This document shows, in pieces, positions 1 to 27,492 of a DNA stretch of 64,000 nucleotides; the first letter of the stretch is position 1; the number at the start of each line of letters is the position of its first letter. A model generated the notes under the pieces. The model saw only the letters and a list, made by a program, of their open reading frames with translations, was not told the DNA's origin and did not search any database. Both the position numbers and the translations under genes were made by a program. The stretch is from Elusimicrobiota bacterium (GTDB lineage Bacteria; Elusimicrobiota; Elusimicrobia; UBA1565): NCBI GenBank assembly GCA_043819795.1, contig JBDREN010000049.1, forward strand, positions 2,379 through 66,378. The letters are read 5' to 3'.

Positions 1-720
1 CTGCGTTTCGAGGATAAGACCGTATTCGAGCGCGGGCCGGGCTACGCGGTCATGAGGATCGTCCATTACGTCATCATCGTCGCTTCGTCGATGGTGGCGC
101 TGCAGACGATCGGGTTCAGGCTCACCAGCGTGGCCGTCGTCGGTGGCTTCCTGGGGGTAGGCTTGGGTTTCGGCCTGAAGAACGTCACGGAAAATTTCAT
201 ATCCGGCATCATCCTGCTGCTGGAGCAGCCCATCCGCGTCGGCGACAAGGTGAGCGTCCAGGACCTCATCGGGACGGTCAAGAGGATCGGCATCCGCTCC
301 ACGGTCATCGACACCTTCGACAACATCACGCTGATCCTGCCGAACTCGGTCCTGGTCCAGGAGCAGGTCATCAACTGGTCGCACAGCGACCCGAAAATAC
401 GCATCCATGTGCCCTTCGGCGTCGCCTACGGCAGCGACATCCCCCGCCTGCGCGCCGCGGCGATCAAGACGGCCCTGGATGCGCCCCGGGTGCTCAAGAG
501 CCCGTCGCCGGAGCTGCGCTTCCTCGGGTTCGGCGATTCCTCCCTCGACTTCGACCTGCTCGTCTGGATCGACGAGCCCCTAAACCAGTTCGTGGTCAAG
601 AGCGACATCTACTACGCGCTGGAGAGGGCTTTGCGCGAAAGCGGGATCGAGATCCCGTTCCCCCAGCGCGACGTGCACATCAAGACCGCGCGCGGCCTTC
701 AAGGAGCGAAGATCGGCTGA
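1..720 (+). CDS. Mechanosensitive ion channel, MscS family (5' end truncated by the window edge)
   Basis: The reading frame is open from position 1. The translation contains the MscS pore helix and beta-domain signature (GGFLGVGLGFGLKNVTENFISGIILLLEQPIRVGDKV...GTV..IGIRST). The track's first ATG at 52 is probably internal. Confidence 0.8.
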   Translation: MRFEDKTVFERGPGYAVMRIVHYVIIVASSMVALQTIGFRLTSVAVVGGFLGVGLGFGLKNVTENFISGIILLLEQPIRVGDKVSVQDLIGTVKRIGIRSTVIDTFDNITLILPNSVLVQEQVINWSHSDPKIRIHVPFGVAYGSDIPRLRAAAIKTALDAPRVLKSPSPELRFLGFGDSSLDFDLLVWIDEPLNQFVVKSDIYYALERALRESGIEIPFPQRDVHIKTARGLQGAKIG

Positions 721-806
721 GGTGTGCGCTTCTCAAAATCCACGAGCTGTCCCGGGAGTTTGCTAGACTATTTTGAAGGCCAGGCCGGGCGGTTCAGGGG
801 GGGGAC

Positions 807-2240
807 ATGAGAGTCGCAGAGAAGACGAAGTCCGCGCAGGAGGTCTGGGCCAAAGGGTACGGCGTCATCAAGCACGCGCCCGAGACCCAGAGGCGCGTGC
901 GCGCCATGGCCAAGCACTTCAAGGCCACGGGAGACGGGACGCCTCTCTTCGAGATTCTGGCGGCGGCCGACCGGCTCGCGAGCGCGGCCATGTGGCTCAC
1001 GGTGCACGACACCTACGCCAGGAACGTGTACTTGGACGGGCGCAAGCTCGGCCGCGAGGACTTCAAGAAGAGCCCCGAGGGGCACACCGGAGGCTCCCTC
1101 AACATCTGCCCGGCCTACGCGGGCTATCTCGCCGCGAACGCGATCACCGGCCATACCCGGGGCTGGCTCATGGAGCAGGGGCACACGGTCTCGGCGATCG
1201 ACTCCGTGAACCTGCTCGTCGGCAACCTGACGCCGGCCCATGCGGAGCGTTACGACCTGACCAACGAGGGCCTGAGCCGTTTCGTGCGGGACTTCTACTC
1301 CTACCGGCTCAACGACAAGGGCGAGCAGGATTCCCCGCGGGGCAGCCACGTGAACGCCCACACGGCGGGGGGCATCGCCGAAGGCGGGTATCTCGGCTTC
1401 GCCGGCCTGCAGTACGCGCACCTGCCCCTGGCGGGCGAGAGGCTGGTGGCGTTCCTGAGCGACGGCGCCTTCGAGGAGCAGCGCGGCCCGGACTGGGCCC
1501 CGCGATGGTGGCGGCACGCGGACTGCGGCTTGGTCGCGCCCATCATGATCTGCAACGGCAGGCGCATCGACCAGCGCACCACCATGAGCATGTCCGGCGG
1601 CTCGGCCTGGTTCCGCAGGCATCTGGAGCTCAACAACTTCGATCCCATCGTGATCGACGGAAGGGACCCGGCGGCCTTCGCCTGGGCGATCTGGGAGACG
1701 GAGAGAAGGCTCGAGTCCGCTCCCCGGAAATATCCCGTGAGGCTTCCCTACGCGATCGCGGAGACCGTCAAGGGATACGGCTTCCCCGGGCAGGGGACGA
1801 ACGCGGCCCACGGCCTGCCTATAGGCGGCAAGGCGGACGACGAGATGATCCGCGTATTCAATGACGGCGCCGGGAAGCTGCACGTGCCCGCGCAAGAGCT
1901 CAAGGAGGCGGCGGCGAGGTTCCAGCGGCACAAGGACCGGCCCAAGGAGCGGGACCACGCCATGGCGGCGCGGGACGTGAAACTCAAGAGGACGGTCGAG
2001 CCCCCCTGGCTGCGAGTGGACGAGAAGCACATTCCCATGACGATGATCGACTACATGTTCGTCGAGACCTGCCTGGCGAACAAGCACCTCCGGCCCCGCG
2101 TGGGCAACCCGGACGAGCTCCGCTCCAACCGGATGGAGCGCACCTTGGATATCCTCAAGCACCGGGTGACGCTTCCGGAGCGGGGAATGGCGGAGGCGCT
2201 CGACGGGAAGCTGTCTCCGCACGAGGTGATCCTCCGATGA
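807..2240 (+). CDS. Phosphoketolase (XFP) family protein, N-terminal and central portion only (477 aa; possible truncated gene or pseudogene)
   Basis: Clear similarity to xylulose-5-P/fructose-6-P phosphoketolase TPP-binding regions (GHTGGSLNI.., HTAGGIAEGGYLGFAGLQYAHL, FLSDGAFEEQRGPDWAPRWW, APIMICNGRRIDQRTTMS, RVGNPDELRSNRMERT). The ORF is ~477 aa versus ~790-820 aa for characterised XFPs. It stops just after the central domain, 4 nt after the next gene's start. Confidence 0.7.
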   Translation: MRVAEKTKSAQEVWAKGYGVIKHAPETQRRVRAMAKHFKATGDGTPLFEILAAADRLASAAMWLTVHDTYARNVYLDGRKLGREDFKKSPEGHTGGSLNICPAYAGYLAANAITGHTRGWLMEQGHTVSAIDSVNLLVGNLTPAHAERYDLTNEGLSRFVRDFYSYRLNDKGEQDSPRGSHVNAHTAGGIAEGGYLGFAGLQYAHLPLAGERLVAFLSDGAFEEQRGPDWAPRWWRHADCGLVAPIMICNGRRIDQRTTMSMSGGSAWFRRHLELNNFDPIVIDGRDPAAFAWAIWETERRLESAPRKYPVRLPYAIAETVKGYGFPGQGTNAAHGLPIGGKADDEMIRVFNDGAGKLHVPAQELKEAAARFQRHKDRPKERDHAMAARDVKLKRTVEPPWLRVDEKHIPMTMIDYMFVETCLANKHLRPRVGNPDELRSNRMERTLDILKHRVTLPERGMAEALDGKLSPHEVILR

Positions 2241-2815
2241 GCGGCCCGGCATCCGTCGCGAGAAGACTGCTCTTTGTGGGGCTGTTGGCCGCGGTCCTGG
2301 GGCCGCTCGCCGGCTCCGCCCGCGCCGCGGTCTCCCGGGGCATGCACGTGGGCGGCTTCGCCAACGGGGCGAACTGGGGCGTGGGACGCCTCGGCCGCAT
2401 AACGGACACGGGGATCAACTTCGCGCTGCTCTACAGGTATCACATCACCGGAGCGCTCTCCGCGGGAATGGAGGTGCGCCGCATCGACTACGGGGCCACC
2501 GCGGCCTCGGGCACCGAGTCCGACGTGGAGCTGGATTCCTACGCTCTGATCGGCAGGTGGGATGTCCTGCCCAAGTCCGATCTCCGGCCGCATCTGGTCT
2601 GCGGCGTGTCCAGCAACAGGTTCAAGCGGAAGGTCGTCCTCGGCCGCTCCACCTCCGAGTCGTCCTCGTATAAGCCCGGCGGAAGCGTCGCGATCGGCCT
2701 GGACAGGGACTTCGGGAAGGGCTGGACCGTGGGCGGGCAGTTCCGCTACCTGCACGTGGGCTCGGACATCAACGCCCTCGGGCTCCGCCTGGTGATCTCC
2801 TTCAGGTTCGCGTAG
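2237..2815 (+). CDS. Outer-membrane beta-barrel protein (OmpA-like/porin-family beta-barrel)
   Basis: N-terminal signal peptide (LLFVGLLAAVLGPLAGSARA), alternating amphipathic beta-strand pattern, and the C-terminal aromatic signature RLVISFRFA (terminal F-x-F) typical of BAM substrates. Confidence 0.65.
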   Translation: MSGPASVARRLLFVGLLAAVLGPLAGSARAAVSRGMHVGGFANGANWGVGRLGRITDTGINFALLYRYHITGALSAGMEVRRIDYGATAASGTESDVELDSYALIGRWDVLPKSDLRPHLVCGVSSNRFKRKVVLGRSTSESSSYKPGGSVAIGLDRDFGKGWTVGGQFRYLHVGSDINALGLRLVISFRFA

Positions 2816-2877
2816 AGAACCGGCCCACTCGCACGCCGTCCGACCGCGCCGACTGGGGAGAATCCGTCAAAACGCCG

Positions 2878-3351
2878 CTAATCCTGGCCGTGGAGGGAAG
2901 ACGACTTGTCGTCGTGCACGCCGCGGCGTAGCGTCTGAAAGAGCCGCTCGAAGTGATGGACGCTGACAAGGACCGTGACCGAAACAAGCGCCATCGCCAG
3001 GGCCAGGCCGAATTCCCGGAACCCGATGGCGCAGCCGATGGCGGCCAGGAGCCACACCACCGCCGCCGAGGTGATCCCCGTGACGAGACCTTGCCTGTGC
3101 ATCATGAGTCCGGCGCCCAGGAACCCGACGCCGGTGGCCACCTGGCCCAGCACCCGTGTCGGGTCCCCCTGACCCATATGGCGCATGCCTATGTCAATGT
3201 AGGTGAGGGTGCCGAGGCAGATGAGGATGCTGGTCCGGATGCCGATCGGCTTGCCGCGCAGCTGCCTCTCGATGCCGATGATCACGCCGCAGGCTATGGC
3301 GGCCAGGATCTGAAGCCAGAAGATGCGATCCGCGAGAACATGTGCGCCCAT
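2878..3351 (-). CDS. mgtC: MgtC/SapB family membrane protein
   Basis: MgtC signature IIGIERQLRGKPIGIRT and 4-5 TM helices. I set the start to the internal ATG at 3351 (MGAHVLADRIFWLQ...); the longer track ORF running to 3573 adds an arginine-rich non-homologous leader. Confidence 0.75.
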   Translation of the reverse strand: MGAHVLADRIFWLQILAAIACGVIIGIERQLRGKPIGIRTSILICLGTLTYIDIGMRHMGQGDPTRVLGQVATGVGFLGAGLMMHRQGLVTGITSAAVVWLLAAIGCAIGFREFGLALAMALVSVTVLVSVHHFERLFQTLRRGVHDDKSSSLHGQD

Positions 3352-5071: not shown

Positions 5072-7951
5072 ATGAAGCACACTGCTTGGCTGTCGATCGG
5101 CGCGATGATCCTGTTCGCGGGAGCCGGGTCCGCGGCCCCGTTTCGCCCCCTCGAGCCCAAGGAGGCCGCCGCGCTGATATCGAAGATCCAGGCCAATCCG
5201 CGCGGGCCGTACGAGCGCGTGATGTGGCACTGCCGGGACGGCTCGGTGCTGCCTCCCGCGCCCTATGCCTGCTCCGAGCGCGGCGGCGGCCGGCAATACG
5301 GCGTCCCGAACGCGGACGCGGGGAAGCTGGCTGCGGCCGGGATATACGTCGGCACGGTCTTGGCGTCATTGTCGCCCGAGGATCTGACCGCCGACGGCTA
5401 TTACCGCGCGCGGGCCATTATCGTGGAGAAATTCCTCGAGATCGCGCTGGACGGGTGGGCCTTGCGTTCGGCGAAGTCGTATCGGGGCTTCAGGCAGGCC
5501 GAAGACGAGGAGAAAGCGGCCGAAACCCTTCTGGCGGTATTGGCCCGCGAGGACGGCTGGGCCCTGCGCCATCGCTACCTCGCCGTCCGGCTCGCGCGGT
5601 CCATGCCGGGCGGAGCGGACGCGAGCCTGGCCGATGAGATCCGCGCCCTCGCCGCCAAGATAGCGGACAAGGACCCCGCGTTCCAGGGCATGCGCTCCAA
5701 GATCCACTCCATCATGGAGCCCGGAGACGCCAGCGCGGTGCTGAGCTATTCGGAAACGGCGCCGGCGGCCGCGCCGGCGGCGAGGGAGCTGGCGGAGAAA
5801 ATCCGGGCCTATTACGACCCGCGCCAGTTGCGCGACCGCCTCCGGAGGATCAGACGCTTCTTGCCGGACCGGGGGATCGCAGGCCTGATCGACGAGTTGG
5901 TTTCCGCGGAAGCCGATGTCTTCGAGCGGATACGGATCGTCGAGGAATTGCTGACCCTGGCGGACCGAGCGCTCGGCCAGGCCGCGTCCCGCACCGACGG
6001 GACCCGGCTCCACCTGATCCAACTCATGAGCGCCTTGGAGGATGTCCTGGCCTCGACGACCGCGCAGCTAAGAGGCGCGAGCATGTTCAGGCTTCAGGCG
6101 GTGGAGACCGCGCAGAGGCTGTCGCGGTGCGCCCGGGCGCTCGGGCTTCTCTCGCCGCGCGAGCTGGAGGCCGCCCGGCCGGTCATAGGGCGCATGCGGA
6201 CCGGAGGGGGAGCGGATTACGTCGCCGGGCATCGCCAGCTGATTCGGACCGCCGAATGGGCTCGTGCCCTGGTGCTGTCGGAGCTGGGCATCCCCATCGG
6301 CCGGTACGTCCTGGCCGAAGGCCGGGCGGCGCAGGTCGTGGACGAGCTGCTTCGCAGCGGGGTGATGCTGCCGCTGGCGGCGATCATCGACCGCATCGGC
6401 GCCGACCTGTACTCCCTGCGGGGAGGGAACCATCGCGTCTACGGCGTGAAGGGGGCCGCCGTGCGGGGCGAGAACCCGGGCCTGGCGATCGGGCCGCTTC
6501 GCGTCCGAGAGCATTCCCAATCGCCCAAAGGACTCAAGCGCAACGAGGTGGCGCTCCTATATGAGCTCCCTTCGGAGCTGCCTCCGGTCGCGGGGATCAT
6601 CACCGTGGGCGCGTCCGGCAGCCTATCGCATGTCGCCCTGCTGGTGCGGAATCTGGGGATTCCCTTGGTTTCCGTGGACGGGCGGACCGCCGACGCGATC
6701 AAGGCCTGGGAAGGGCGGGAGGTGGCCGTGGGCGTGAGCGCGGGCGGCCGCGTGGTCTTGGGAGAGCTTATCGCGTTCGGGGAGGAAGACCGGCGGCTGT
6801 TGGGGCGATCGTCGGCCAAGGACCAGCCTTTCCTGAGGATCCCGCGCGAGTCGCTCAACCTCCGCTTCGCGGAGGCCCTCGCGCTGGGCGAGGTGTCGGA
6901 AAAGGATTCCGGGGCGAGGGTCGGGCCCAAGGCCGCGGAGCTGGCCAGGCTCAAGCGTCTGTTCCCGGATCGCGTGAGCGACGCGGCGGTGCTGCCCTTC
7001 GGGCTGTTCGTCGAGCATGTCGACCGGCCGGGGCCGGACGGGGCTCCGTCCCCCCTGGCGAGGCTGCGGTGGGCCTATGCCCAGGCGGCCACAAAAGGCG
7101 CCGAGGAGCGGGAGCGGTTCATGCTGGAAGAGCTCGCCAGGTTCCGCAAGCGGATACTGGAGCTCCCCTTTGCGGATGGGTTCGAGCGGAAGATCGACGA
7201 GGCGCTCGCGCGCGTCGGCCGGCCGGGCGCATTCGGGGTCTTCGTCCGCAGCGACACCAACGTGGAGGACCTCAAGGAGTTCACCGGCGCCGGCCTGAAC
7301 CTGACGGTACCCAACGTCGTAGCGCGCGATTCGGTCTTCTCCGCGATCCGTTCGGTCTGGGCGTCCCCCTATTCCGAACGCTCCTACGCCTGGCGGCAGC
7401 GCATACTCCTCGATCCGGAGCATGTCTATCCGTCGGTCATTCTCCACAAGACCGTTCCCTCCGAAATATCGGGGGTCCTGGTCACGATGGACATGGAGAC
7501 GGGGGATCCGGGCCAGGTCACGGTGAGCGCGAGCGAGGGCGTGGCCGCGGTGGTGGACAGCGGCCTTCCGGAGACGATCGTCGTGCCCAGACAGGGAGGC
7601 GCCCCTCGGTGGCTCTCCTCGTCCCGGACCGCGACCAGGAAGGCGGTCCCCCCGTTGCCGAAAGAGGGGCTCGAGGTGCTCCCCGCCTCCGGCGGCGAGC
7701 CTCTGCTGGGACCGGCAAGGATCAAGGACATCCTCCATGTCGTTTCGCGTCTGGAGACGATCGAACGGGCCGACCCGGCCGTCCCCTGGGATGTGGAGTT
7801 CGGGTTCCTGGGGGATCGGATGTTCCTCATGCAGCTGCGGCCGCTCAAGGTGTCCCGCTCGGCCGTCCGCCAGCCCTATCTGCGGAAGCTCGATCGGGAG
7901 GTCTCGTCGAGGATCGGCGAGGTCGACATGAGCCGGCCGTTGGCAAGGTGA
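5072..7951 (+). CDS. PEP-utilizing-enzyme family protein with signal peptide and permuted domain order (N-terminal unknown domain, then phosphohistidine swivel domain, then PPDK_N ATP-binding domain)
   Basis: Signal-like N-terminus MKHTAWLSIGAMILFAGAGSAAP. The mid-region matches the PEP-utilizers mobile domain (AGIITVGASGSLSHVALLVRNLGIPLVSVDG). The C-terminal ~330 aa match the PPDK_N / PEP-synthase nucleotide-binding domain (VGPKAAELARLK.., VFVRSDTNVEDL..GAGLNLTVPN...AIRSVWASPYSERSYAWRQ...SGVLVTMDMETGD..VTVSASEGVAAVVDSG). Confidence 0.7.
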   Translation: MKHTAWLSIGAMILFAGAGSAAPFRPLEPKEAAALISKIQANPRGPYERVMWHCRDGSVLPPAPYACSERGGGRQYGVPNADAGKLAAAGIYVGTVLASLSPEDLTADGYYRARAIIVEKFLEIALDGWALRSAKSYRGFRQAEDEEKAAETLLAVLAREDGWALRHRYLAVRLARSMPGGADASLADEIRALAAKIADKDPAFQGMRSKIHSIMEPGDASAVLSYSETAPAAAPAARELAEKIRAYYDPRQLRDRLRRIRRFLPDRGIAGLIDELVSAEADVFERIRIVEELLTLADRALGQAASRTDGTRLHLIQLMSALEDVLASTTAQLRGASMFRLQAVETAQRLSRCARALGLLSPRELEAARPVIGRMRTGGGADYVAGHRQLIRTAEWARALVLSELGIPIGRYVLAEGRAAQVVDELLRSGVMLPLAAIIDRIGADLYSLRGGNHRVYGVKGAAVRGENPGLAIGPLRVREHSQSPKGLKRNEVALLYELPSELPPVAGIITVGASGSLSHVALLVRNLGIPLVSVDGRTADAIKAWEGREVAVGVSAGGRVVLGELIAFGEEDRRLLGRSSAKDQPFLRIPRESLNLRFAEALALGEVSEKDSGARVGPKAAELARLKRLFPDRVSDAAVLPFGLFVEHVDRPGPDGAPSPLARLRWAYAQAATKGAEERERFMLEELARFRKRILELPFADGFERKIDEALARVGRPGAFGVFVRSDTNVEDLKEFTGAGLNLTVPNVVARDSVFSAIRSVWASPYSERSYAWRQRILLDPEHVYPSVILHKTVPSEISGVLVTMDMETGDPGQVTVSASEGVAAVVDSGLPETIVVPRQGGAPRWLSSSRTATRKAVPPLPKEGLEVLPASGGEPLLGPARIKDILHVVSRLETIERADPAVPWDVEFGFLGDRMFLMQLRPLKVSRSAVRQPYLRKLDREVSSRIGEVDMSRPLAR

Positions 7952-7958
7952 ACGGGCG

Positions 7959-9269
7959 ATGAGAGCAAGGGCGCCGAGACTTTTGACGCGGCTGGGGCTG
8001 GCTCTGGGCATGGCCTGCCTACGGCAGGGCGCGGCGGCGTACCCGACGGATTCCGGGGAGCGGACCGGCATCCGCCGGTTGTCCTGGCAGGCGCAGGTCG
8101 ACCGGGGCGAGACGCGGGGAGTCAAGAACCCGCCTGGAGGGCGCTGGGGGGAGGATCGGATACGCCTGCGGCTGCTGAGCTCGGGCGCGCGATTCCGGCT
8201 GTCCGAGGACAGCCCCAAGGACCCGGTCCTTCAGAAGGGCCTGACGGACATACTCAAACGCGGGGGTTGGGAGTCGTACGGGGCGGCGATCGTGGACATC
8301 TCCGACCCGGAAGCCCCGAGATACGCGGCCGTCAACGAGCTCAAGCGCCAGATACCGGGCAGCACGGCCAAGGTGCTGGCGGCCGCGGGCATGCTGGAGG
8401 CGCTGCGGTCCCTTTATCCCGACGACATAGCCGCCCGGGAGAGGGCTTTGCGGACGATTCGGGTTCCGGCGGACTCCTGGGCCATGCCCAACTCTCATGA
8501 TGTCCCGATCCTGACGGCCGAGGGGATGTCGATGCGCCCCATCCGCCCCGGCGACGTCTTCTCACTGTGGGAGTGGCTGGACCACGCACTCTCCCCGAGC
8601 TCCAACGCCGCGGGGACCATGGTGTGGCGCGAGGCGGCGCTGCTGCGCTTGTTGGGGCGGGAATATCCCCCGGCGGCTTGGGACGGAAAGCTCTTCGCAC
8701 GGTGGAGCAGGCAGGATTTCACCAAGGCCGCGTTCGATGCGGTCGACGCTCCGCAGGCCGGGGCCGGGCTCGATACGGACCTGTTGCGGATACGTACATT
8801 CTTCACGGCGGGCGCTTCCCGCCACATCCTTTCGTCGAGCAGCGTCGGGACTCCCTTGGGCCTGGCGCAATGGCTGCTCAGCATGGAGCAGGGCAGGATC
8901 GTGGACCCTTGGTCCAGCCTCGAGCTCAAGCGCCTCCTCTACGTCACGCGCAGGCGCATCCGGTCCGCCGCGGCCCCGGAGCTGGCGGAATGCGCCGTAT
9001 ACTTCAAGAGCGGAAGTCTCTACAAGTGCAGACCCGAGGAGGGCTTCGTCTGCAAGAAGTATATGGGCAACGATCAGAACCTGCTCAACTCGCTGGCCTT
9101 GGTCGAAGTCCCGTCCGCGGAGCCCGATGAGGGCGGTCGACACCGCATTTCAGGGGCGTATATCGTGGCCGTGACGTCGAACGTGCTCAAGCGGAACTCG
9201 GCCGACGATCACGCGCGCCTCGCGGGCGCCATCCATCGCTTGCTGACGGGCCGGCAAAAAAAGAAATGA
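7959..9269 (+). CDS. Class A beta-lactamase-like serine hydrolase (Beta-lactamase2 family), secreted
   Basis: Signal peptide. S-x-x-K (PGSTAKVL), S-x-N (SPSSNAAG) and K-S-G (YFKSGSL) motifs are in class-A order and spacing. Confidence 0.65.
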   Translation: MRARAPRLLTRLGLALGMACLRQGAAAYPTDSGERTGIRRLSWQAQVDRGETRGVKNPPGGRWGEDRIRLRLLSSGARFRLSEDSPKDPVLQKGLTDILKRGGWESYGAAIVDISDPEAPRYAAVNELKRQIPGSTAKVLAAAGMLEALRSLYPDDIAARERALRTIRVPADSWAMPNSHDVPILTAEGMSMRPIRPGDVFSLWEWLDHALSPSSNAAGTMVWREAALLRLLGREYPPAAWDGKLFARWSRQDFTKAAFDAVDAPQAGAGLDTDLLRIRTFFTAGASRHILSSSSVGTPLGLAQWLLSMEQGRIVDPWSSLELKRLLYVTRRRIRSAAAPELAECAVYFKSGSLYKCRPEEGFVCKKYMGNDQNLLNSLALVEVPSAEPDEGGRHRISGAYIVAVTSNVLKRNSADDHARLAGAIHRLLTGRQKKK

Positions 9270-25110: not shown

Positions 25111-27492
25111 ATGACTTCTAGGGACGCGGCCGGCGACGCCCCTAAGCCGCGCCGCAGGGCCGGCGCCGAGCCTTCGAGCCATCTCGCCGCCCTGCTCTGT
25201 CTCGACGAGCTCCGGGTGGGCCCCCCCAGGCTCGAGCCCCGGAGACTGACGGTGCCCTATGCCGCGACCCGCGACGGCCGCGCCGAGAGCCTGGAGCTCG
25301 TCTACAAGTACGACGAGGACGTCTTCGACCCCGAGGACGAAGGCCACCGCAACCTGGCTTCCATGATCGGCGCCCAGGTGGCGCTGAACTACGGCCTGTT
25401 CTGCCGGGGCATCCGCTTCGACGGGACCTACTCGGAGGCGGACCGCCGGTTCATCGTGGAGATGGCCGAGAACACGGCGCGGGAGATCCTGGTAAAGAAG
25501 CTGCTCCAGCCGAACCCGTTCCTCGTGCCGGACTTCGCCCCGCTGCGGCCGGGGAAGCTCGATACGTACTCCCAGGCCCGAATCCGGTTCTCCTCCCCCG
25601 TGACGGGGGACCGTCAGGTGCCCTGGCAATCCTGGGAGACGAGCCACGAGCGGCTCGCGGTGCTCTCCAGCGGCGGCAAGGACAGCCTCCTGAGCTTCGG
25701 CCTGCTCCAGGAGCTCGGCCGGGAGACGCATCCCATCTTCATCAACGAGTCCGGCCGGCACTGGTTCACCGCGTTCAACGCCTTCAAGCGGTTCAAGGAG
25801 GATGTGCCCCTCACGGCCAAGGTCTGGACCAACGCGGACCAGATGTTCTCCTGGATGCTGCGGCGGCTGCCGTTCATCCGCCGGGACTTCTCCGAGGTGC
25901 GCTCCGACGACTACCCGATCCGTCTGTGGACGGTGGCCGTATTCCTGTTCGGCGCCCTTCCGCTCTTGCGCCGGCGCGGCATCGGCCGCCTCGTCATCGG
26001 CGACGAGTACGACACGACGCGCCGCAGGCGGCATCTCGGCATCCGGCACTACGACGGCCTTTTCGACCAGAGCCGCTACTTCGACAATTATGTGTCGCGC
26101 TACTTCCTGGGCAAGGGCTGGGCCGTGAGCCAGTTCTCCCTGCTGCGCCCCTTGTCCGAGCTTCTGGTCCAGAAGACGCTGGTCGAGCGCTATCCCGATC
26201 TCCAGAGGCTGCAGGTCTCCTGCCACGCCGCCCACATGCGGGAGGGGGCGGCGCGGCCCTGCGGCGGCTGCGAGAAGTGCCGCCGCGTGGTCGGGATGCT
26301 CCTGGCCGCGGACGCGGACCCCTCGCGCTGCGGCTACACCCCGGCGCAGGTCGAAAGCTGTCTCTCCCAGATGGGCAGCAAGGGCGTGCATCAGGAGGAA
26401 GCCTGCTGGCGGCACGTGCTGTTCCTGCTGCGATCCAAGGGGCTCCTCCGCCGGGAAGGGCCCCTGATCGCGCGGGCGGAGGAGAAGCCCGAGGCGCTCA
26501 GCCTGCGCTTCGACGGCGAACGCGCGCCCCTGGACGCCGTCCCCGTGGACCTGCGCCGCCCCCTCTACCGCATCCTCCTGGGCCACGCCGCGGGCGCGAT
26601 GAGGCGGGTGGAGCGGCGCTGGGCGCCCTTCGACCTGCTGGCCGACCGCGGTCTCGCGAAGACCTACCCCTTCGAGTTCGAGACCAAGCGTCAGCCGGGG
26701 GAAGGCGCTCCCCGCAGCTATCTTTACGGCGAGCTGACCTGGCCCGAGATGACGGAGAGGCTGCGGAAGGTCGACCTCGCCCTCCTCCCCGTGGGCGCGA
26801 TCGAGCAGCACGGGCCGCACCTGCCGCTCGACACCGACGCATTCGACGCCGCCTACCTGGCGAGCCGGGTCGCCGAGGCGTGCGGCAAGCCCCAGCCCCT
26901 GGTCCTTCCGGGCATCCCATACGGCGTCTCGTATCACCACGACGAATTCAAGGGCACCGTGAGCATCCGGAACGGCACGCTCTCCGGCCTCGTCTACGAC
27001 GTCGGCATGAGCCTGGCCCGCAACGGCATCCGGAAGCTCGTCATCATCAACGGCCACGGCGGGAACAGCCCGGCGCTCAACTACGCCGCGCAGATGATCA
27101 ACCGCGACGCCCGCATCTTCGTCTGCGTCGATACCGGCGAGACCAGCGACGTGGACATCAACGAGCTGATCGAGACGCCCAACGACGTGCACGCCGGCGA
27201 GATCGAGACCAGCACGGCCCTGGCGGTCCGGCCGGAGCTGGTCCGGATGCGCCTGGCCAAGCGCTCCGTCCCGAGGTTCTCCAGCCGCTATCTCGACTTC
27301 AGCTCGAAGCGCAGCATCTCCTGGCACGCCCACACCAAAAGGATCTCCGAGAGCGGCGTGATGGGCGACCCCACGCGCGCGAGCCGGGAGAAGGGCCGGC
27401 GTATCTGGGAGATCATGGTCGCCCACCTGGTCAACCTGGTGGAGGAGCTGAAATCCTTGAGCCTCGAAGAGATATGCCAGCGCCGCTACTGA
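25111..27492 (+). CDS. Fusion protein: N-terminal domain, PP-loop ATP pyrophosphatase (SGGKDS; QueC/Dph6-like with CxxCxxC zinc motif), and C-terminal creatininase-family amidohydrolase
   Basis: PP-loop LAVLSSGGKDSLLSF at ~residue 187 and CGGCEKCRR at ~372. The C-terminal 250 aa carry creatininase signatures LLPVGAIEQHGPHLPLDTD, IINGHGGN and HAGEIETS. Confidence 0.7.
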   Translation: MTSRDAAGDAPKPRRRAGAEPSSHLAALLCLDELRVGPPRLEPRRLTVPYAATRDGRAESLELVYKYDEDVFDPEDEGHRNLASMIGAQVALNYGLFCRGIRFDGTYSEADRRFIVEMAENTAREILVKKLLQPNPFLVPDFAPLRPGKLDTYSQARIRFSSPVTGDRQVPWQSWETSHERLAVLSSGGKDSLLSFGLLQELGRETHPIFINESGRHWFTAFNAFKRFKEDVPLTAKVWTNADQMFSWMLRRLPFIRRDFSEVRSDDYPIRLWTVAVFLFGALPLLRRRGIGRLVIGDEYDTTRRRRHLGIRHYDGLFDQSRYFDNYVSRYFLGKGWAVSQFSLLRPLSELLVQKTLVERYPDLQRLQVSCHAAHMREGAARPCGGCEKCRRVVGMLLAADADPSRCGYTPAQVESCLSQMGSKGVHQEEACWRHVLFLLRSKGLLRREGPLIARAEEKPEALSLRFDGERAPLDAVPVDLRRPLYRILLGHAAGAMRRVERRWAPFDLLADRGLAKTYPFEFETKRQPGEGAPRSYLYGELTWPEMTERLRKVDLALLPVGAIEQHGPHLPLDTDAFDAAYLASRVAEACGKPQPLVLPGIPYGVSYHHDEFKGTVSIRNGTLSGLVYDVGMSLARNGIRKLVIINGHGGNSPALNYAAQMINRDARIFVCVDTGETSDVDINELIETPNDVHAGEIETSTALAVRPELVRMRLAKRSVPRFSSRYLDFSSKRSISWHAHTKRISESGVMGDPTRASREKGRRIWEIMVAHLVNLVEELKSLSLEEICQRRY

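Follow-up and report, generated by a model that had tools for sequence, protein, structure and literature searches.

The open reading frame at positions 807 to 2240 (+ strand) of the 64-kb window, by which we mean the whole stretch of DNA that was analysed, encodes 477 residues and belongs, with an internal deletion, to a phosphoketolase-like (XFP-like) family. About 304 codons have been removed from it in frame, and its native 3' end has been retained. We put at roughly three in four the chance that this remnant gene reflects a real, recent and inactivating deletion, that is, that it is a very young pseudogene. NCBI lists the product, MFH1723685.1, as a 'hypothetical protein' of an Elusimicrobiota MAG, encoded on a contig of 91,408 nt. 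The preliminary description of this DNA had offered two readings: a pseudogene that a rearrangement had cut and that was decaying, or a genuine short paralog. Of the first we keep the pseudogene, but not the rearrangement or the decay, as the deletion is a clean one at an LDGK-coding repeat, the 3' end is native and no decay is visible. The second we do not keep, as no comparable form was found among the relatives surveyed, and Pyr-domain residues that every ThDP enzyme needs are missing.

The reading frame and its retained domains

The reading frame was correctly described at the outset: its translation is confirmed, and it matches Pfam XFP_N with 41.2 bits against a gathering cut-off of 23.7. 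GC3 is 0.92, equal to that of the neighbouring genes, and the composition is host-like; GC3 also marks out the + strand frame as the real one. A Shine-Dalgarno-like run of eight G residues, read from the sequence, lies at positions 794 to 801 (+), 5 nt upstream of the ATG at 807. We note that homopolymers as long as this one, which stands directly before the start codon, are prone to length change. A scan of window positions 600 to 3100 found no sigma-70-like promoter, and nothing informative came from the promoter and terminator scan and the repeat search around the gene. At the 3' end, the TGA stop (2238 to 2240) overlaps the ATG of the next reading frame (2237 to 2239) in the sequence ATGA, an overlap that had been recorded before. 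The next gene, of 192 codons at 2237 to 2815 (+), had been taken for an outer-membrane beta-barrel protein with a signal peptide, and it does match Pfam OMP_b-brl (E 1.1e-8), is named 'outer membrane beta-barrel protein' by NCBI and begins with a sequence that, read by eye, is signal-peptide-like. It is a neighbour of the remnant and no part of the enzyme.

What does the remnant keep of its parent enzyme? Aligned with the family and with XFP, its PP (diphosphate-binding) domain is complete. The core of this domain, residues 51 to 291 (positions 957 to 1679, +), is the segment that XFP_N matches. The PP-domain histidines are present, with H93, H126 and H181 the equivalents of His64, His97 and His142, and the equivalent of His320 is H335 (positions 1809 to 1811), which lies beyond the PP core. 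The ThDP diphosphate and Mg motif (GDG...N) is represented by S218-D219-G220...N250. An AlphaFold model of the domain, with a pTM of 0.78, has its closest folds among phosphoketolases (E 6e-12) and matches their PP domains best. The central Pyr domain survives only as its first third, about 55 residues. Within this stub, residues 416 to 456 at positions 2052 to 2174 (+) match positions 5 to 44 of the 177 in Pfam XFP with 20.7 bits, just under the cut-off, and residues 430 to 477 are modelled with pLDDT below 50. The earlier statement that the product aligns with the N-terminal and central parts of XFP is right for the PP domain, and for the Pyr domain it is right for that first third only.

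The segment that is gone corresponds to residues 467 to 770 of the full-length relative P0007, in which Pfam XFP spans residues 412 to 581 and the C-terminal domain residues 600 to 745. The break therefore starts within the XFP domain, and not after the central domain as had been proposed; the Pyr domain has lost two thirds of its length, and nothing is left of the C-terminal domain. The equivalents of Glu479, Tyr501, Asn549, His553 and Lys605 all lie inside the deleted segment. That of Glu479, the cofactor-activating residue, which is part of the family motif LNEE, is found in P0007 just 7 residues past the junction. ThDP enzymes of this superfamily form each active site from two subunits, one of which contributes its PP domain and the other its Pyr domain. 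Since the Pyr-domain residues that such a site needs are all deleted, the 477-residue product should be unable to act alone as a ThDP enzyme, a loss of activity that we deduce from sequence.

The junction and the origin of the deletion

The similarity of the remnant to its homologs begins at residue 1 and ends at residue 467 or 469, as seen with 12 tblastn queries, 58 genome loci and 150 representatives, and no alignment in an exhaustive search reached past query residue 469. The nine residues that follow, L469-SPHEVILR477, together with the TGA stop (positions 2211 to 2240, +), match the ends of the relatives P0003, P0004, P0006, P0007 and P0010 in the same frame. By tblastn, the last 10 to 24 residues of several full-length homologs match positions 2163 to 2234, again in that frame. 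Against a profile of the family C-terminus, the octamer LSPHEVIL scores 17.5 bits and ranks first among the 113,315 six-frame octamers of the window; the runner-up scores 13.1. As the tail matches the family C-termini, the stop codon of the remnant is native too. The loss of about 330 C-terminal residues that had been described is instead an internal, in-frame loss of about 304 codons, followed by the native last 9 residues and the stop. A six-frame tblastn search with 12 full-length relatives found no trace in the 64-kb window of the missing stretch of about 900 nt, which would encode residues ~470 to 765.

One might think of another event, in which a rearrangement or insertion brought in the outer-membrane protein gene and truncated the C-terminus, or in which a full-length gene was frameshifted. 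The reading frame does, after all, fall about 300 residues short of its relatives, and next to it stands an unrelated gene which is a neighbour in none of the related loci. Its last nine codons and its stop, however, belong to the family itself, so the 3' end has not been replaced, and the missing part is present in no frame downstream or elsewhere in the window. The true frameshift cases in the family (L041 and L060 to L063) moreover look quite different. We give truncation or frameshift hardly any credence, and the idea that correcting a frameshift or sequence error would restore a product of about 800 residues falls with the six-frame search.

The junction itself, GCG CTC GAC GGG AAG at positions 2196 to 2210 (+), encodes A464-L-D-G-K468 and represents two in-frame direct repeats merged into one; in the window it reads GCGCTCGACGGGAAGCTGTCTCC. 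At the protein level, the window has AEALDGK followed by LSPHEVILR and the stop, where P0007 (residues 460 to 473) has AEALDGK followed by VITALNEE; the C-terminal end of P0007 reads AVLDGK followed by LSPHGVVLT and the stop. At the P0007 locus, L001, the two copies of the repeat are GCG CTG GAC GGC AAG (residues 462 to 466) and GTG CTC GAC GGC AAG (residues 766 to 770), which lie in the same frame and 912 nt, or 304 codons, apart. The two sites share GACGGCAAG, with 12 of 13 nt identical, and the repeat is exact over 9 nt. Of 115 full-length relatives, P0007 alone has LDGK at both sites, and the two halves of the window junction correspond to its half-sites. In most other family members the two sites share 4 to 7 nt. 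The LDGK repeat is presumably a peculiarity of the remnant's subclade which the ancestor of the remnant shared, the nearest relative being 73% identical.

What sequence of events would account most simply for this structure? The ancestor would have been a full-length, ThDP-dependent phosphoketolase-like gene encoding about 780 residues, in which a repeat of about 13 to 15 nt coding for A/V-L-D-G-K was present twice in the same frame, with one copy some 55 residues inside the Pyr domain and the other 9 codons ahead of the stop. Undeleted, the junction would read GACGGGAAG and then GTn ATC ACn. Replication slippage, or recombination that may have been microhomology-mediated, would have removed about 912 nt between the copies. 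Because the repeats are in register, the product remained in frame and kept the native tail, the stop and the 4-nt overlap with the next gene. We infer, as the most likely case for each, that the direct ancestor carried the repeat, that slippage was the mechanism and that the organism itself has the deletion.

Spontaneous deletions between short direct repeats were classically described for lacI of E. coli. The remnant is like them in that one merged copy is left, the repeats are of about 9 to 15 nt and several hundred nucleotides are lost. Its one special trait by comparison is that both repeats code for LDGK in frame, so that the frame and the native stop survive.

Does the deletion belong to the organism or to the contig? 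It is possible to imagine that the organism has the full-length gene, and that the contig, through an assembly or consensus artefact or by representing a minority allele, jumps from one repeat copy to the other. The junction lies exactly on a repeated motif, where assemblers can mis-join, and the remnant is as conserved as its intact relatives, which would be expected if the true gene were intact. The deletion is also known from a single MAG contig, with no independent copy; look-ups with the exact products of the remnant, the outer-membrane protein gene and the upstream MscS gene brought up no second copy of the population, and no metagenome or genome contig matched a 27-nt pattern taken from immediately before the junction. 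Against a mis-join stands the length of the repeat. It would be about 13 to 15 nt long, and only 9 nt are exact in the sole relative that has it. Short-read assemblers normally use k-mers longer than 13 to 15 nt, which makes a jump across such a repeat unlikely. Flanking sequence, frame and codon usage are, in addition, continuous over the junction. We consider an artefact or minority allele unlikely.

The family of the parent gene

Across residues 1 to 468 the remnant is 60 to 73% identical to XFP-like homologs of 770 to 830 residues. Its closest relatives are in Planctomycetota MAGs (72 to 73% identity), and no Elusimicrobiota relatives were seen among the homologs found. The family is a large one, with 3208 matches at E of 1e-3 or below in many phyla, and it includes proteins of cultured Comamonas, Thauera, Cupriavidus gilardii, Variovorax and Diaphorobacter. 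Among the 55 complete family genes in 58 species-representative genomes, 52 encode 766 to 813 residues. With such full-length members as P0007 and P0002 the remnant shares its start and its C-terminal tail motif; it differs from them in its ~304 missing codons, in having no acetate kinase neighbour and in the substitution N336G. It belongs to the clade by descent, not by architecture.

How close is this clade to the phosphoketolases that have been studied? The best PDB chain for the remnant is 8io8, at 24 bits; its best NCBIfam phosphoketolase model gives 40.3 bits, where the cut-offs are 777 to 1518. Full-length relatives score 129 to 163 bits with the NCBIfam phosphoketolase models and are also below the cut-offs, and the identity of the family to structurally solved phosphoketolases is about 16 to 23%. 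Judged by these scores, the remnant is a member of a separate XFP-like clade that is only remotely related to canonical XFP. A profile of the full-length members nonetheless aligns end to end with the Bifidobacterium phosphoketolase (E 6e-40). The full-length relatives carry the domains in the order PP, Pyr, C-terminal, which is also the order in XFP of Bifidobacterium (PDB 3AI7, 3AHC and 8IO6) and of cyanobacteria (8IO8); compared with XFP, the remnant is without the residues equivalent to about 474 to 800, save for the last 9.

The list of active-site residues of phosphoketolase, with their roles, is taken from PMC10547157. The family keeps the equivalents of His64, His97, His142, His320, Glu479, Tyr501, Asn549, His553 and Lys605, and its pocket differs from that of Bifidobacterium XFP in having Asn for Gln321, Asn for Gln546 and Lys for His548. 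Gene context points in the same direction as the retained residues. In 40 of 58 related loci an acetate kinase gene precedes the family gene on its own strand, no more than 5 kb away; in about 38 the two are directly adjacent, and one is also found upstream of the family gene in L003 and L063. With the active-site residues kept and acetate kinase as the usual neighbour, the family is very probably of the phosphoketolase type; the parent enzyme is most likely a divergent ThDP-dependent enzyme of this type that would form acetyl phosphate.

The family has been given a different name in the databases. NCBI records call it 'xylulose 5-phosphate 3-epimerase', which is apparently a misnomer, and the JGI label is 'phosphoketolase'. 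A limited literature search on the NCBI name and on divergent phosphoketolase clades brought up only UlaE-type epimerases or unrelated genomes, and no paper on the family was found.

Age, neighbours and short forms

Has the remnant begun to decay? Across its 477 codons there are 0 stop codons and 0 frameshifts. Of 162 positions with a conservation of 97% or more, it departs from the family at 2, which places it at rank 42 of 116; the median number of departures is 1. Its mean identity to an outgroup is 0.655, against 0.625 to 0.652 for the others of its subclade, so that it is the least diverged member. Neither the conservation test nor the relative-rate test nor GC3 gave any sign of decay. 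One of the two departures, N336G (codon 336, positions 1812 to 1814), places Gly where 113 of 115 relatives (98%) have Asn. This position is the equivalent of the active-site residue Gln321, beside His320 of the Bifidobacterium phosphoketolase, and the change is a weak hint at relaxed constraint. The second departure is M438L. The lack of decay fits a very recent deletion; it would fit an artefact, or continued selection, equally well.

Continued selection would imply a useful protein consisting of a PP domain only, such as one subunit of a split ThDP enzyme, or a ThDP-binding or regulatory protein. The reading frame is intact, a Shine-Dalgarno-like sequence precedes it, GC3 is host-like at 0.92 and there is no excess of substitutions. 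Active split transketolases with a separate PP subunit do exist, and one of them (PDB 6yak) is among the fold matches of the remnant, which is itself essentially one PP domain of the transketolase/phosphoketolase fold. In the split-gene transketolase the cut is at a domain boundary, the partner gene is adjacent and the form is conserved; in the remnant the break is inside the Pyr domain, leaving a stub for which disorder is predicted (pLDDT below 50 from residue 430), and neither the adjoining sequence nor the rest of the 64-kb window contains a reading frame for a Pyr or C-terminal domain. Acetate kinase, the usual partner, is likewise missing from the window. The native 9-residue tail indicates derivation by deletion rather than a gene that evolved to be short, and the architecture is unique among the members surveyed.

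The survey had a bearing on the earlier suggestion that short XFP-like reading frames might recur in relatives. None of the 477-residue type was found in 58 genome loci, among the best 120 of the 3208 matches, or among 387 representatives from the exhaustive search, in which the other short members were frameshift splits or fragments. L041, L060, L061, L062 (P0101) and L063 (P0083) were considered as similar short forms and set aside as frameshift splits, in which the full length of the gene is present. P0101 might be taken for a short form broken at the same site, but it ends near the junction only by coincidence of its frameshift. In the split genes L062:748-3173 (JGI 3300068089) and L063:1888-4313 the remainder continues in another frame. 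L060 and L061, from MFD-labelled MAGs, have several frame changes within one gene, which may be indel errors and not real pseudogenes.

On this evidence a functional short form is quite improbable. We think it very improbable, in particular, that a PP-only product is expressed and retained in order to pair with a Pyr and C-terminal domain protein encoded elsewhere, or as a ThDP-binding, regulatory or dominant-negative subunit; if it were, the lack of decay would reflect selection and not youth. An intact second copy, or a Pyr and C-terminal domain partner, may lie elsewhere in the genome, outside the 64-kb window.

The surroundings of the remnant are not those of its relatives. The genes around it encode an MscS channel (upstream), the outer-membrane protein, MgtC, an MFS transporter and a PPDK_N-like protein. 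In 63 related loci the outer-membrane protein and MscS genes are never neighbours of the family gene. The window contains no acetate kinase gene, the gene upstream of the remnant being that of the MscS channel, and no gene related to the phosphoketolase pathway is found in the rest of its 64 kb.

Some other genes of the window may be recorded here. The PPDK_N-like protein, of 959 residues (5072 to 7951, +), has a PPDK_N (ATP-grasp) domain at residues 685 to 934, a weak PEP-utiliser mobile domain and an apparent N-terminal signal peptide, which is unusual for an enzyme of such kind. Directly downstream of its gene, at 7959 to 9269 (+), is a reading frame of 436 residues with a coding-like GC3 of 0.84 and no Pfam match. 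A 793-residue reading frame at 25111 to 27492 (+) has a creatininase domain at residues 541 to 777 only, its N-terminal 540 residues being without a Pfam match; the + strand run around it encodes a PALP enzyme, a DUF1611 protein and a protein like mandelate racemase and enolase.

What does the remnant mean for the organism and for the family? This gene gives no ground for ascribing phosphoketolase-type activity to the MAG. For annotation the lesson is that an intact-looking reading frame with a good Pfam match can be a deletion pseudogene, and that a native C-terminal tail fused to an N-terminal half is the tell-tale sign of one. As biology, the remnant is a routine deletion between short direct repeats. 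The parent family is the more interesting subject: it is large and widespread, it is linked to acetate kinase, and it is only about 20% identical to the phosphoketolases that have been studied, from which it is set apart by three differences in the pocket.
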